Source: an uncultured Candidatus Saccharibacteria bacterium (GTDB taxonomy: Bacteria; Patescibacteriota; Minisyncoccia; UBA6257; 2-01-FULL-56-20). Taken from it: a stretch of 64,000 nucleotides of DNA. The position numbers and the translations under genes were made by a program. Position 1 is the stretch's first letter. The number at the start of each line of letters is the position of its first letter. This document shows, one piece after another, positions 1,785-17,330 of the stretch. The stretch spans positions 394-64,393 of the forward strand of contig CAZYEL010000001.1 of the NCBI GenBank assembly GCA_964646415.1, given 5' to 3'. The notes below the pieces were generated by a model. The model made no database searches. It was not told the DNA's origin and was given only the letters and a program-made list of their open reading frames with translations.

Positions 1785-4319
1785 TTATATCACCACCACG
1801 CCCGCAATTCTGTCTCCTGAACTCAAGTTCATAATCCGCACGCCTTGCGCGGAGCGGCCGGTCTGGCGGACGCTCTTTAGCTCCGTCCGAATCACCTGCC
1901 CCTTCGCCGAGAGCGCGAGCATTTCCATCTCCTCGCTCACCACCGTTCCCGCAACCACCTTTCCCGTCTTCGCGGTCACGTTCGCGGTCTTGATGCCGGA
2001 ACCGCCGCGGTTCTGGGTTTTATATTCCTTAAGCGGCGTCTGCTTCCCGAATCCGTTCGCCATAACCACCAAAAGTTTCGCGGTGTCCCCCTTCTTCACG
2101 ATGTCGCACCCCGCGACCGCGTCGCCCGTGCGAAGCCGGATGGCACGCACACCCGCCGCGCCGCGCCCCATGGGACGCGCTTGCGACTCCGCAAAACGGA
2201 CGGATTGCCCTTGTTCCGTTACCAGTATCACCTGCTCGTCGCCTTTCGAAATCCGCACCCACTTCAGCAGGTCGCCTTTTTTTCCGCCCGAGGCGGATCC
2301 GCCTTTGGTGGACAACTTAATCCCGATGATGCCCGTGCGGCGGATGTTTTCGAAATCCTTAAGCGCGGTCTTTTTCACTATCCCATGCTTGGTTACCATC
2401 ACAAGATAGATTCCCTTGTCGCTTGTCGCTTGTCGCTTGTCGCTCGATGGCAGGTTCACAATCGCGCTCACGCTTTCTTCGGCAGGAAGTTCGAGGAAGT
2501 TATGAATCGCTTTCCCTTTCGAGGTGCGGCTCGCGGCGGGGATTTCGTACGCACGCGTTTCGAATACTCTCCCGCGGTCGGTGAAGAAAAGAATCCGGTC
2601 GTGCGTGTTCGCGTGGAAGAAATGCGAAAGGAAATCCTCGTCCGCCACGTCCGACCCGATGAGCCCCTTCCCGCCCCGCCGCTGCGCTTTGAAGGAATCC
2701 GGCGGTACGCGTTTGATGTACCCGCTCGAAGAGAACGTCACAATAGCCTCCTCTTCGGGAACAAGGTCCTCGTCCGTCATTTCTTTGAGGGCAGAGTTCA
2801 CCACATGCGTCCGCCGCGCATCGCCGTATTTGGTTTTGAGTTCCGCAAGCTCCTGCTTCACCACCTCGAGCATCCGCGCGGGGCTCTTCAAAATAAGCGT
2901 GAGTTCTTTTATGAGCGCCCGTTTCTCCTTGAGTTCCGCATCGATTTTCTCACGCTCAAGCGCCGCCAAAGTCTGGAGCTTCATTTCCAAAATTGCCACC
3001 GCCTGGAGCTCCGAGAGCTTGAACCCTTTCATGAGGTTCATCCGCGCATCCTCGCGGTCCTTTGATTTCTTGATGGTTGCAATCACCTTGTCGATTACGT
3101 CCAAGGCCTTCGCAAGCCCTTCCAAAATATGCGCCCGCTCTTCCGCTTTCCTTAAATCGAACTGCGCGCGGCGGCGCACGATTTCCTTGCGATGCGCGAT
3201 GTAGGCGAGGAGCATCTCCTTCAGGGAGAAAAGCTCCGGCTGGATGCCGTCCCGCAAGGCAATCATATTGAAATGAAAATCCTTCTGGAGGTCGGAGTGC
3301 TGGTAGAGCTGGTTCAATACTTTCTGCGGCGCGGCGTCGGACTTGAGCTCCACCACAATCCGCAGGCCTTCGCGGTCGGACTCGTCGCGGAGGTCGCGGA
3401 TGCCTTCTACGCGCTTATCCGTAACGAGCATCGCAATGTGCTTCACAAGCTCGGACTTGTTCACCTGGTAGGGAATTTCCGTGATGACAATGTCGAACCC
3501 CCCCTGCCTGCCGGCAGGCAGGCGCGCACCACTCTCTCCCTTCTTGCGCTCCACAATCTCCGCTTTCGCGCGGGCCGTTACCGCGCCGCGCCCCGTCGCA
3601 TACGCCGTCCGAATAGCGGCGCGGTCGTAAATAACGCCGCCCGTCGGGAAATCCGGCCCCTTCACGTGCTCCAACAAATCCTCCCCCGTCGCGCCGGGCT
3701 TCTCCATAAGAAGAAGCGTCGCGTCCACCACCTCCACAAGGTTGTGCGGCGGGATACTCGTCGCCATCCCCACCGCGATTCCCAAAGTGCCGTTAATCAA
3801 AAGGTTGGGGAGCTTCGCGGGGAATACTTTCGGCTCCTCGCGGGTCGCGTCATAGTTCGGCAGCCAGTCCACCGTTTCTTTCTCGATATCAAAAAGCATC
3901 TCCTCCGCGACTTTCGAGAGACGCGCTTCCGTGTACCGCATCGCTGCGGGAGAATCCCCGTCGACGCTGCCGAAGTTTCCCTGCCCCTGCACAAGCGGGT
4001 ACCGGAGCGAGAAGTCCTGCGCCATCCGCGCGAGCGTGTCGTAAATCGCCACGTCGCCGTGCGGGTGGTATTTCGCCATCGTCTCGCCCACCACATTCGC
4101 CGATTTCCTGAACCTGGCGAGATGCGTGAGGCCGATGGACCACATGGTCCAAAGCACGCGCCGATGCACCGGCTTCAGCCCGTCGCGCACGTCCGGCAGG
4201 GCGCGCGCGACAATGACCGACATGGCATAGTCGAGGTAGGATTCGCTAAGCTCGCTCGTGATTGGACGTTTTTCTACGTTGTCTGGCATAGCATCGGATT
4301 TCGTGCTTCGGACTTTCAC
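1785..4319 (-). CDS. gyrA: DNA gyrase subunit A (probable true start at 4289, MPDNVEKRPITSEL...)
   Basis: Matches GyrA throughout: N-terminal 'YLDYAMSVIVARALPDVRDGLKPVHRRVLW', the active-site Tyr region and a C-terminal beta-pinwheel. Contains an in-frame (CGACAAG)4 heptad repeat at 2414..2444. Confidence 0.95.
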   Translation of the reverse strand: MKVRSTKSDAMPDNVEKRPITSELSESYLDYAMSVIVARALPDVRDGLKPVHRRVLWTMWSIGLTHLARFRKSANVVGETMAKYHPHGDVAIYDTLARMAQDFSLRYPLVQGQGNFGSVDGDSPAAMRYTEARLSKVAEEMLFDIEKETVDWLPNYDATREEPKVFPAKLPNLLINGTLGIAVGMATSIPPHNLVEVVDATLLLMEKPGATGEDLLEHVKGPDFPTGGVIYDRAAIRTAYATGRGAVTARAKAEIVERKKGESGARLPAGRQGGFDIVITEIPYQVNKSELVKHIAMLVTDKRVEGIRDLRDESDREGLRIVVELKSDAAPQKVLNQLYQHSDLQKDFHFNMIALRDGIQPELFSLKEMLLAYIAHRKEIVRRRAQFDLRKAEERAHILEGLAKALDVIDKVIATIKKSKDREDARMNLMKGFKLSELQAVAILEMKLQTLAALEREKIDAELKEKRALIKELTLILKSPARMLEVVKQELAELKTKYGDARRTHVVNSALKEMTDEDLVPEEEAIVTFSSSGYIKRVPPDSFKAQRRGGKGLIGSDVADEDFLSHFFHANTHDRILFFTDRGRVFETRAYEIPAASRTSKGKAIHNFLELPAEESVSAIVNLPSSDKRQATSDKGIYLVMVTKHGIVKKTALKDFENIRRTGIIGIKLSTKGGSASGGKKGDLLKWVRISKGDEQVILVTEQGQSVRFAESQARPMGRGAAGVRAIRLRTGDAVAGCDIVKKGDTAKLLVVMANGFGKQTPLKEYKTQNRGGSGIKTANVTAKTGKVVAGTVVSEEMEMLALSAKGQVIRTELKSVRQTGRSAQGVRIMNLSSGDRIAGVVVI
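2414..2444. repeat. heptanucleotide microsatellite (CTTGTCG)4 inside gyrA, encoding SDKRQATSDK
   Basis: Four perfect tandem 7-mers. The sense-strand 31-mer 'agcgacaagcgacaagcgacaagcgacaagg' is identical to 28826..28856 inside uvrD. Confidence 0.9.
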
Positions 4320-6374: not shown

Positions 6375-6406
6375 GGGCTACACTTAAGAGGTAGCCTGTT
6401 TTATTT
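6375..6406 (+). terminator. rho-independent terminator after rpsA
   Basis: Stem 'ggctac acttaagag gtagcc' followed by 'tgttttatttt'. Confidence 0.6.
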
Positions 6407-6407
6407 T

Positions 6408-7103
6408 ATGAGAAAAGATAAAGAAGTCGCGCTCAAGTTGCGTCTGGGAGGAAAAAGTTATACCGAAATAAGCCAGACTCTTGACGTACCAAAATCCACT
6501 CTTTCCGCATGGCTTTCTAAAGTCGTTCTATCTCCTCGTGCGAACGAGAGAATAGCTGCGCGCACACGAGAAAAATCTCTCATAAGCATCCTCCGCCATA
6601 ATAGGCAACAAACAACCGCTGCCCGGAAACGTGCTTCGGATACTCGGAAATTAGCGGCGAGTTTCATCGGGAGACTGTCGGACCGAGACTTACTCATCCT
6701 TGGCGCTGCGCTGTATTGGGCAGAAGGATACAAAAGATTGAAGTGGAGGAAAGGCAAGGAGCTGACGGCTCACCCTGTGTCGCTTACGAACTCAGACCCG
6801 TTTCTTGTACAAGCATTCCTCAAATTCCTCCGGGGGAACATGGGGGTGCACAATGAGAAAATAAAAGCTGGCGTGCGCATATTTCAACATCATAACGAAC
6901 AAGAGTTATTGGATTTTTGGCAACGCATTACTGATATCCCACGAAAGAACTTTACAAAAACGTACGTGGGAATCAGCCAGTCGAGCAAAGGGAAACGGCC
7001 ATTCAATCGGCTACCGTATGGGACACTTCAAATCAACGTTTCCAGCACTCCTCTCTTTCATCAAATCATGGGCTATATTGAAGGATTGAAAGAAAACAGG
7101 TAA
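6408..7103 (+). CDS. HTH + LAGLIDADG-like homing-endonuclease-family protein (paralog 1)
   Basis: N-terminal helix-turn-helix 'GGKSYTEISQTLDVPKSTLSAWL' and a single LAGLIDADG-type motif 'LLILGAALYWAEGYK'. Paralog of 18156..18824. Ends 20 nt upstream of the intron-containing tRNA-Phe. Confidence 0.6.
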   Translation: MRKDKEVALKLRLGGKSYTEISQTLDVPKSTLSAWLSKVVLSPRANERIAARTREKSLISILRHNRQQTTAARKRASDTRKLAASFIGRLSDRDLLILGAALYWAEGYKRLKWRKGKELTAHPVSLTNSDPFLVQAFLKFLRGNMGVHNEKIKAGVRIFQHHNEQELLDFWQRITDIPRKNFTKTYVGISQSSKGKRPFNRLPYGTLQINVSSTPLFHQIMGYIEGLKENR

Positions 7104-7123: not shown

Positions 7124-7426
7124 GCCGCGGTAGCTCAGTGGTAGAGCATTCGCCTGAACTCTTCGGGCACCGATTCAGTAATGAATCGGCGAAAACTGGG
7201 TGAACTCGGGGAAACTTCTTTTTTAAAGAACAATCCCGAGCCAAGCCCCGACGCAAAATCGGGGAAGGTGTAGAGACTATCCCTTCGGGGAGTACTCTCC
7301 AACATGGGTCGGAGCGGAAGCGCCCAGCTCCCGTAATCGCACGGCGATTTTATGGGATGATGATATAGTCCAAACTTCGTAAGGAAGAGCGATTGGTCGG
7401 GTGTTCGATTCACCCCCGCGGCACCA
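7124..7426 (+). tRNA. tRNA-Phe(GAA) interrupted by a group I intron in the anticodon loop (encoded CCA)
   Basis: 5' exon GCCGCGGTAGCTCAGTGGTAGAGCATTCGCCT (7124-7155). 3' exon GAAGAGCGATTGGTCGGGTGTTCGATTCACCCCCGCGGCACCA (7384-7426). The acceptor stem is a perfect 7 bp, the T-arm is GGGTG/TTCGATT/CACCC, and the anticodon loop is CT-GAA-GA. Confidence 0.85.
7156..7383 (+). mobile_element. group I self-splicing intron (228 nt, no internal ORF) between tRNA-Phe positions 33 and 34
   Basis: Exon U33 precedes the 5' splice site. The internal guide sequence GGGC pairs with exon GCCU. Conserved R-like 'gtagagactat' and S-like 'gatgatatagtcc' elements form P7 (AGACUA/UAGUC). The intron ends with G (cgtaaG). 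Confidence 0.8.
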
Positions 7427-17256: not shown

Positions 17257-17330
17257 TGGTCGGCCTGGAAGGAATCGAACCTTCGTCAGACGTGTATAAG
17301 ACGTCGGCTTTACCATTAAGCTACAGGCCG
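17257..17330 (-). tRNA. tRNA-Ile(TAT) (anticodon UAU, AUA-reading); encoded CCA
   Basis: Reverse complement is CGGCCTG-TA-GCTT-AATGGTA-AAGC-C-GACGT-CTTATAC-ACGTC-TGAC-GAAGG-TTCGATT-CCTTC-CAGGCCG-ACCA. All four stems are Watson-Crick. Confidence 0.75.

Follow-up and report, generated by a model that had tools for sequence, protein, structure and literature searches.

How does a bacterium of the Candidate Phyla Radiation (CPR) make tRNA-Phe from a gene whose anticodon loop is interrupted, and why does a conserved protein gene lie next to it? The question is raised by a 64,000-nucleotide (nt) window (the whole stretch of DNA analysed here; positions 394 to 64,393 of contig CAZYEL010000001.1), in which ARAGORN in default mode found 6 tRNAs, none of them tRNA-Phe. 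An earlier note on this DNA had proposed that two tRNA-Phe exons at 7124-7155 and 7384-7426 reconstruct a canonical tRNA once 228 nt are removed as a group I intron. We consider it very probable that tRNA-Phe(GAA) of this CPR bacterium is split between U33 and G34 by a 228-nt group I intron that carries no open reading frame (ORF) and would need removal at the RNA level, and that the adjoining helix-turn-helix (HTH) protein is most likely a free-standing endonuclease. The gene is arranged as follows.

7124-7155, forward strand: tRNA-Phe exon 1 (acceptor 5' strand, D arm, anticodon-stem 5' strand and C32-U33, with U33 as its last base), placed by ARAGORN.
7156-7383, forward strand: ORF-less group I intron of 228 nt, placed by Rfam RF00028 and by covariation on an alignment of 57 sequences.
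7384-7426, forward strand: tRNA-Phe exon 2 (anticodon GAA, anticodon-stem 3' strand, variable loop, T arm, acceptor 3' strand and CCA), placed by ARAGORN.

With intron mode switched on, ARAGORN returned a 75-nt tRNA-Phe(GAA) at 7124-7426 with a 228-nt insert in the anticodon loop. The same canonical 75-nt tRNA, with CCA encoded, was obtained by ARAGORN after deletion of 7156-7383 in silico, and the exon coordinates given in the earlier note proved exact. The program sets the insert one base further 3', which makes no difference: GAA occurs at each junction, so several cut positions yield an identical product. Only a cut after U33 (7155), with G7383 as the intron end, is compatible with group I chemistry. 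In an Infernal/Rfam scan, which the note had named as a check, RF00028 (Intron_gpI) matched 7146-7389 across all 253 positions of the model and scored 61.1 bits, above the 50-bit gathering threshold (E = 4.7e-13 for the window, 3.3e-15 locally). Neither a further group I intron nor a second tRNA-Phe (ARAGORN with and without intron mode) was found within the 64-kb window.

The same arrangement recurred in other genomes. In a scan using one genome per species, 296 genomes encoded a relative of the 231-amino-acid (aa) ORF that precedes the tRNA, and 80 loci were kept. Named records among the ORF loci were all from Patescibacteria lineages or unclassified metagenome-assembled genomes (MAGs), except three labelled 'uncultured Gammaproteobacteria'. 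Around three homologous proteins the module was repeated, with an interrupted tRNA-Phe after the ORF. Alignment A3 comprised 57 interrupted tRNA-Phe genes from 57 species, taken from the ORF loci. The insertion site, U33/G34, was identical in 57/57 aligned species; exon 1 ended in CCU, the intron ended in G and exon 2 started with GAAGAG (57/57 each). The intron family appears to occupy one tRNA-Phe site across many CPR lineages. The group I reading is supported by the Rfam score, by these 57 homologues at an identical site and by the base-pair covariation described below.

Intron_gpI scores of relatives ranged around the cut-off (L001, 62.6 bits; L003, 94.3 bits; L005, under the cut-off). The L005 intron (3733-4041) is a clear family member, yet it falls under the Rfam gathering threshold that L001 and L003 pass. 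Threshold-based annotation therefore under-counts these introns and their tRNA-Phe genes, and since default ARAGORN finds none in addition, CPR genomes can wrongly seem to be without tRNA-Phe.

To describe the fold, helices P1-P8 were written onto the 57-sequence alignment, with P3 and P7 as pseudoknots, and pairs were counted; controls were 500 shuffles and partners slid by 1-3 columns. The elements of the intron in the window are these.

7152-7168, forward strand: P1 hairpin, in which exon GCCU and intron GAA (7152-7158) pair with the guide UUCGGGC (7162-7168), U7155·G7165 being the 5' splice site.
7159-7164, forward strand: P10 part of the guide, CUCUUC, the exact complement of exon 2 GAAGAG (7384-7389).
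7170-7189, forward strand: P2 hairpin with a GUAA tetraloop, the loop being of GNRA type in most homologues.
7196-7202, forward strand: 5' strand of P3, partner of 7321-7327.
7206-7269, forward strand: P4-P5-P6/P6a domain (P4, 7206-7211 with 7234-7239; P5, 7215-7231; P6/P6a, 7240-7269).
7273-7279, forward strand: 5' strand of P7, G-A-GACUA with a bulged A, partner of 7366-7371, from the Rfam alignment.
7280-7318, forward strand: insert between P7 and P3', with a P7.1-like hairpin UCCC-UUCG-GGGA (7280-7291) and a second hairpin (about 7297-7314); Rfam opens a 39-nt insertion here.
7321-7327, forward strand: 3' strand of P3, from covariation on the 57-sequence alignment.
7329-7357, forward strand: P8 hairpin, from the covariation count.
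7366-7371, forward strand: 3' strand of P7, UAGUCC, from the covariation count.
7376-7383, forward strand: intron 3' tail, in which UUCG (7376-7379) copies the anticodon-stem 5' strand and can pair with exon 2 CGAU (7390-7393), ending in G7383.

Across the 57 sequences, 91.9% of cells in the P1-P8 model were standard-paired compared with 79.5% in shuffles. The covariation score (0.389) was well above that of the shuffles (0.155), none of which reached it (0/500), and of the slid registers (≤0.115). Changes on both sides were seen at 26 P1-P8 pairs. The earlier note had predicted a guide pairing with exon GCCU through a U·G wobble, R-like and S-like elements forming P7, and a terminal G, and all three were located (U7155·G7165; 7273-7279 with 7366-7371; G7383). 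The splice-site U·G of P1 was present in 57/57 homologues. Two positions 5' of it, pair 29-45 was C-G in 33 and G-C in 24 sequences, so the exon base covaries with the guide sequence; the first intron base and its partner (pair 33-41) also covaried (G-C 26, A-U 24, G-U 7). P10 was paired in 95.6% of cells and showed no covariation because its exon side is invariant.

All eight P2 pairs (8/8) had changed on both sides, P3 was 99.2% paired with three compensatory pairs (e.g. C-G in 28 versus U-A in 25), P4 was 99.4% paired, and P6a was 97.8% paired with 4/4 pairs compensatory. In P6, G7240·U7269 was swapped for an isosteric A·C in 3 sequences. P7, built by the R element GUAGAGACUA and the S element GAUAUAGUCC, was 98.8% paired and almost invariant, with the usual bulged base preceding a G-C pair; G7275-C7370 is presumed to be the guanosine-binding pair. 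The basal 4 pairs of P8 were 78.9% paired, 3 of them compensatory. One or two hairpins lay between P7 and P3' in all 57 relatives: the P7.1-like UCCC/GGGA hairpin in 20/57 (91% paired in those), and a single hairpin with the conserved loop GUGAGUCCCAACAAUAAUC in the remaining 37/57. The second hairpin of the window at this place (about 7297-7314) is a prediction. Taken with P10, the P1-P8 pairing and covariation show, at the level of sequence, a group I ribozyme core under selection, which would be catalytic.

The 3' tail adds an unusual feature. In 39/57 sequences it repeats 4-5 bases of the anticodon-stem 5' strand, with at least 4 contiguous pairs possible to exon 2 (nt 39-43). The mean number of contiguous tail/exon 2 pairs was 3.70, compared with 2.22 ± 0.10 when stems of foreign species were used (maximum 2.53, 1000 trials).

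Intron size also varied. The tRNA-Phe introns of four loci (L048, L063, L064 and L138) measure 404-440 nt, ~200 nt longer than the others, and no convincing internal ORF was seen in that of L138, the sole long intron inspected. Other tRNA-Phe introns have a ~70-nt conserved P6 extension (CCUUCGC...GGAUUGCAAGCAAGCC...).

Removal of the intron would follow the standard group I pathway. The guide UUCGGGC and the sequence GCCU-GAA across the splice site would form P1, placing U33·G at the cleavage site, and free guanosine, bound at the P7 G-C pair, would attack after U33. The guide bases CUCUUC would then form P10 with exon 2 GAAGAG while G7383 moves into the same site. Attack of the 3'-OH of U33 after G7383 would yield the continuous anticodon loop CU-GAA-GA, with an expected junction of GCCU joined to GAAGAGCG or, in longer form, GCAUUCGCCU joined to GAAGAGCGAUU. 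The surrogate anticodon-stem strand of the tail would probably hold the exon 2 stem strand during P1; we read it as a temporary partner of that 3' strand, beside P10, because P1 occupies part of the true 5' strand. Guanosine-dependent self-splicing of 7156-7383 is what we infer from this architecture.

The split gene could instead be a dead tRNA-Phe with a decaying intron, its functional copy lying elsewhere in the genome. We regard this as very improbable, even though the visible part of the genome amounts to 64 kb and one related scaffold, L006, holds an uninterrupted tRNA-Phe ~410 nt from the ORF besides an interrupted one. The acceptor, D, anticodon and T stems of the split exons were 99.7% paired in the 57 species, eleven pairs of the cloverleaf had changed on both sides and its covariation was 0.461 versus 0.096 in shuffles. 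A cloverleaf that is paired and covarying in this way implies a tRNA under selection and not the pseudogene that the earlier note had held out as a possible refutation; the window itself offers no second tRNA-Phe. The intron core, too, is conserved and covarying. Furthermore, closed CPR genomes have tRNAs for all amino acids, some of them hard to detect owing to group I introns, and intron-bearing tRNAs were required to complete these sets (Lui et al. 2021, PMC8172020).

The L006 features in question lie at 2514-2588 and 2837-2909, the uninterrupted tRNA-Phe being ~410 nt upstream of the ORF. As proof of two tRNA-Phe genes per genome the scaffold was rejected: its tRNA-Arg has a mismatched acceptor stem, it contains Ns, and its identity to L005 starts only at the tRNA-Arg. 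L006 looks like a chimeric join and is probably an assembly chimera of two related strains, one with an intronless tRNA-Phe.

If the tRNA is genuine and the intron has no ORF of its own, what is the gene upstream? The earlier note had called it an HTH-LAGLIDADG gene lying 20 nt before the tRNA.

6408-7103, forward strand: ORF of 231 aa ending 20 nt before the tRNA, with an N-terminal HTH, a long helix and a conserved C-terminal alpha/beta domain; putative free-standing endonuclease.

The start at 6408 was set by alignment with homologues. The protein is identical to HYY10_02660 of a Candidatus Liptonbacteria MAG (CPR/Patescibacteria) and has 679 homologues; the best 120 are all about 220-300 aa, and the sources listed are CPR/Patescibacteria or uncultured bacterium. 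The HTH part of the claim held: Pfam HTH_23 scored 20.2 bits in the window protein (cut-off 24.6) and exceeded the cut-off in two divergent relatives (26.9 and 29.0 bits). PHROGs and NCBIfam matches were confined to the N-terminal HTH or were transposase-like, the HTH types being those of transposases or sigma factors. The C-terminal domain carries the motifs LYWAEGYK, SLTNSDP and KSSxGKRPFNRLPYG. Within G-A-A-L-Y-W-A-E-G-Y-K, residues G99, L102, Y103, W104, E106, G107 and K109 were invariant.

For the second half of the claim, LAGLIDADG, the one positive sign was a weak local hhalign match, in which LYWAEGYK...VSLTNSDPFLVQAFLKFL fell on LAGLIDADG motif 2 of I-DmoI and on the strand and helix that go with it (P = 0.0024, probability 12%). 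Reversed controls against I-DmoI, whose sequence was verified, gave P = 0.19-0.27, and there was no match to I-CreI (P = 0.65). We regard 'LAGLIDADG-like' as a plausible but unproven description of the C-terminal domain. By reasoning only, a LAGLIDADG enzyme with one motif would be expected to work as a homodimer and to recognise near-palindromic DNA; the anticodon arm provides just such a sequence, and the insertion lies near its centre.

Linkage between this ORF and tRNA-Phe was strict. A tRNA-Phe gene lay 6-217 nt from the ORF in all 75 informative genome loci (75/75); in the other five of the 80 the contig ended within 125 nt of the ORF on one side. Four layouts occurred, namely ORF-tRNA on the same strand (as in the window), tRNA-ORF on the same strand, divergent and convergent, the commonest having the ORF 6-57 nt upstream of the tRNA. 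Intron and ORF were found together at 59 of the 75 loci, and at 16 the ORF stood beside an intronless tRNA-Phe; the ORFs at these intronless loci were the ones furthest from the query. At the closing pair of the stem, C31-G39 was invariant in 57/57 intron alleles, and beside intronless genes the pair was C-G, U-A or G-C. This variation could reflect a relaxed P1 constraint or target-site immunity. From the opposite direction, 21/42 loci found by the intron alone had the ORF, some at only 27-40% identity, and nine metagenome loci whose flanks reached about 1 kb or more in both directions had the intron and no ORF. Since ORFs without introns (16) and introns without ORFs (9) both occur, intron-only, ORF-only and joint states are all represented. 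This patchy, independent distribution, and the position of the gene outside but beside the intron-bearing gene, are those expected of a free-standing endonuclease that collaborates with an ORF-less intron.

Some of the ORF-less intron loci had other genes in its place. In three of the nine, homologous zinc-ribbon ORFs of ~125 aa were divergent from the tRNA (L146, 2104-2475; L203, 1694-2068; L202, 5455-5841, reverse strand), with a sub-threshold Pfam HNH match in two and none in the third. The ORF at a fourth (L109, 3382-3849, reverse strand) was unrelated to these and matched HNH_3 above the cut-off. Putative endonuclease genes of at least two families appear to gather at the tRNA-Phe gene.

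On this evidence, the gene of the 231-aa HTH protein most likely encodes an endonuclease and stands free, physically coupled to tRNA-Phe; it would either home together with the intron, in trans, or home on its own. Several results weigh against that interpretation. The C-terminal 145 residues belonged to no family in Pfam, NCBIfam or PHROGs (38 members and 5 divergent relatives gave the HTH only), and sequence and profile searches of the PDB with the ORF gave no relevant match. AlphaFold2 models were confident (predicted local distance difference test, pLDDT, 85.7 and 84.1), but Foldseek searches of the PDB with the full-length and C-domain models returned no LAGLIDADG structure (best template modelling, TM, score about 0.37), and, measured against the canonical LAGLIDADG fold (alpha-beta-beta-alpha-beta-beta-alpha), the model contains one helix too many, with strands 3 and 4 set apart by a long loop. 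In addition, the ORF was free of internal stops in 103/104 loci, and its ratio of nonsynonymous to synonymous substitution (dN/dS) was 0.06-0.20 in the three pairs with estimable dS, one of them from the intronless group. Intact ORFs and low dN/dS fit long-term retention by selection at least as well as selfish gain and loss. A comparison of ORF and flank identity over all pairs of the 104 loci found no near-identical ORFs in different contexts, the only matches being identical or sister genomes; the closest non-identical pair, L010/L012, had ORFs 97% identical and flanks 86% identical. The retention pattern would suit an endonuclease that frequent homing keeps active, a domesticated function or a maturase.

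Two weak structural hits were set aside. The OmpA-like/YfiB fold suggested by Foldseek (TM about 0.37) was treated as non-informative, and a LAGLIDADG protein in BFVD (E = 0.79, probability 0.11) was not counted, the BFVD search having yielded nothing significant.

Two further accounts of the protein deserve weighing. LAGLIDADG maturases act in organelles, and the 231-aa protein may be a domesticated splicing cofactor of this kind, binding the intron RNA to aid its folding. The near-universal integrity of the ORF, a dN/dS this low despite saturated synonymous divergence, the invisibility of recent transfers and a tight linkage that in the commonest layout probably entails co-transcription all suit a maturase. 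The same ORF is nevertheless intact beside an intronless tRNA-Phe in 16/75 genomes, and the nine ORF-less intron loci imply that the intron needs no ORF nearby. The putative catalytic Glu of LYWAEG is invariant and the N-terminal HTH points to binding of DNA, so that a maturase seems decidedly unlikely to us. Slightly less unlikely, though still improbable, is a protein that has nothing to do with the intron: a tRNA-Phe-linked DNA-binding protein (a regulator, a transposase-like remnant or a site-specific factor) whose adjacency reflects ancient synteny of a tRNA cluster. Layouts do look lineage-specific (e.g. tRNA-Val, tRNA-Phe, ORF, tRNA-Gly), the ORF is found with and without the intron, the only domains detected are transposase- or sigma-type HTHs and the fold search yields no nuclease. 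Passive synteny is, however, hard to reconcile with linkage to one tRNA gene that persists through four arrangements, or with the replacement of the ORF by HNH-type ORFs at the same locus in other genomes, and the conserved polar residues and LAGLIDADG-like motif order match domain 2 of I-DmoI locally, if weakly. A free-standing endonuclease remains our preferred reading of the 231-aa protein.

Is such an intron new? The bacterial tRNA group I introns that serve as textbook cases of ancient or mobile ribozymes come from four tRNAs (Leu, fMet, Ile and Arg). The classical IC3 introns among them (tRNA-Leu(UAA) of cyanobacteria and plastids, tRNA-Ile(CAU) of Azoarcus, tRNA-Arg(CCU) of Agrobacterium) are likewise small, ORF-less, located in the anticodon loop and inserted after a U, and they likewise make P1 and P10 from anticodon-arm sequence. 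The P4/P6/P7 core of the tRNA-Phe introns is very similar to what we take to be the IC3 sequences (AAUCCYGAGCCAAGC, GGUGYAGAGACU). The known classical tRNA introns sit within or 3' of the anticodon, whereas here the host is tRNA-Phe(GAA) of CPR bacteria and the site, 33/34, is 5' of it. IC3 introns join P7 to P3' almost directly, and extra helices there mark subgroup IA. The tRNA-Phe introns, in contrast, carry a 25-55-nt hairpin insert (P7.1/P7.2-like) at this place; in the window P7 and P3' are separated by the 39-nt hairpin-forming insert at 7280-7318, so by architecture, as opposed to a formal subgroup classifier, the intron is not of IC3 type. The P7.1-like hairpin presumably resembles P7.1 of T4 td. 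The 3' tail that mimics an anticodon-stem strand is a further difference from IC3 introns.

The earlier note had considered an insertion at 33/34 of Phe(GAA) uncommon, and the literature bears this out. A review of bacterial group I introns that does discuss tRNA hosts never mentions tRNA-Phe (PMC3984707), and the word tRNA has 0 occurrences in a CPR survey of insertion sequences in rRNA genes only (PMC11270868). Searches for group I introns together with tRNA-Phe, CPR, Patescibacteria or Parcubacteria gave no description of a tRNA-Phe intron, in a literature of mostly open-access coverage in which an earlier description is possible. The sole mention of CPR tRNA introns found there was a passing remark (PMC8172020). 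Bacterial tRNA group I introns as such are known; the host tRNA-Phe and the position 5' of the anticodon are new, the periphery is non-IC3 and the spread among CPR bacteria is wide.

The endonuclease association also has partial precedents. I-Ssp6803I is an endonuclease of PD-(D/E)XK fold. Its gene lies inside the Synechocystis tRNA-fMet intron (cited in PMC3984707), whereas the candidate gene here precedes the tRNA by 20 nt instead of lying within it, and its family, HTH plus LAGLIDADG-like, is unassigned. Group I introns in CPR 16S and 23S rRNA genes encode single-domain LAGLIDADG endonucleases such as I-ShaI (Tsurumaki et al. 2024, PMC11270868). These share with the present system the phylum, the element class and, if the 231-aa protein is indeed LAGLIDADG-like, single-domain proteins of that type poorly recognised by Pfam, but they are intron-encoded and their hosts are rRNA genes. 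A further precedent is collaborative homing, for which PMC3984707 describes phage systems only (two); in T4, free-standing mobE drives trans homing of the ORF-less nrdB intron (PMC2790892). As in the phage systems, intron-only, ORF-only and joint states were all seen at the tRNA-Phe locus, and one HNH-like family occurs in two settings, as free-standing genes next to tRNA-Phe and within tRNA-Asn introns (see below). Unlike them, the locus is chromosomal, sits at a tRNA gene rather than a phage protein gene and is found widely across a bacterial phylum; purifying selection has long acted on the 231-aa ORF, for which no recent transfer was detected, and the system is known here from genes alone.

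The intron core extended beyond tRNA-Phe. A search of contigs with an exon-independent core pattern (GGTGTAGAGACTA...AGCGCC...ATAGTCC) matched >120 metagenome contigs and 102 viral contigs. In the metagenomes at least 42 of the matches had tRNA-Phe as host, and ARAGORN labelled the hosts of a second large group Thr, Asn or Asp. Thirty-six members of the second group could be spliced in silico between U35 and U36, and 35/36 gave tRNA-Asn(GUU). The labels tRNA-Thr, tRNA-Asp, tRNA-Tyr, tRNA-Val and so on were rejected as intron misplacement; non-Phe labels at L028, L034, L161 and L191 were rejected as well, their exon sequences being those of tRNA-Phe. Besides L088, L096, L097 (e.g. 184-291), L102 and L111, some 40 other metagenome loci have introns of this second, related family in tRNA-Asn. 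Its long versions, of 540-650 nt, contain an internal ORF of about 125 aa with Pfam HNH scores of 20.8 and 17.7 bits (cut-off 21.4), and the free-standing ORF of L146 is 41% identical to the ORF inside tRNA-Asn introns (E = 6e-21).

The viral matches (L207-L308; 102 IMG/VR contigs) all but one lay outside any ARAGORN-detected tRNA. They may represent group I introns of phages in which the P7/P3/P8 core is nearly identical. When 50,697 phage records were searched, tblastn with the ORF found nothing and blastn with the intron found only core matches of 33-65 nt. The core of the tRNA-Phe intron appears to be common to HNH-bearing tRNA-Asn introns and to elements on phage contigs.

These results add tRNA-Phe and tRNA-Asn of the CPR to the host tRNAs of bacterial group I introns, the distinguishing traits being insertion 5' of the anticodon, a periphery unlike IC3 and a pairing between tail and 3' exon that covaries with the anticodon stem. 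Greater novelty lies in a conserved but unassigned protein family, of putative endonuclease function, that is strictly linked to tRNA-Phe whether or not the intron is there and that gives way to HNH-type genes at some loci. More speculatively, with the odds somewhat against it, the CPR tRNA-Phe locus may be a long-lived arena of collaborative homing with two families: a new HTH and LAGLIDADG-like family dedicated to the palindromic DNA of the tRNA-Phe anticodon arm, and an HNH-like family that elsewhere resides inside tRNA-Asn introns. If this is true, the intron-only, gene-only and joint states preserve intermediate stages in the birth of mobile introns, and the 231-aa protein represents either a previously unrecognised endonuclease family or a domesticated derivative now needed by its host. 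Linkage of the ORF to tRNA-Phe with or without an intron makes this a testable system for cooperation between endonucleases and ORF-less introns, and for domestication.

Several smaller features surround the module. One abuts the ATG of the ORF.

6375-6407, forward strand: terminator-like hairpin GGCUAC-N9-GUAGCC followed by UGUUUUAUUUU (U-rich run), by direct reading.

This hairpin looks like the terminator of the upstream S1-domain gene; a terminator scan missed it, the loop of 9 nt being longer than the scan allows. Between the S1-domain gene and the ORF no Shine-Dalgarno sequence and no promoter-like site were visible on the forward strand, and given the terminator-like hairpin, expression of the ORF may therefore be low or dependent on read-through. 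Elsewhere in the window, 17257-17330 (reverse strand) encodes a tRNA-Ile whose anticodon is UAU (70.4 bits with the Rfam tRNA model), where most bacteria rely on CAU with the lysidine modification. Finally, in the Wolfebacteria genome of L005 (4015-4050 and 4243-4275), and also in L018 and L006, the last ~33 nt of tRNA-Phe and the downstream sequence AACTCCCTCCCGCGGCACCAATATGGGATTTGA are repeated ~230 nt downstream. The repeats of L005 flank a G+C-rich structured segment, and the arrangement resembles an att-like duplication or a small element inserted at the 3' end of the tRNA.

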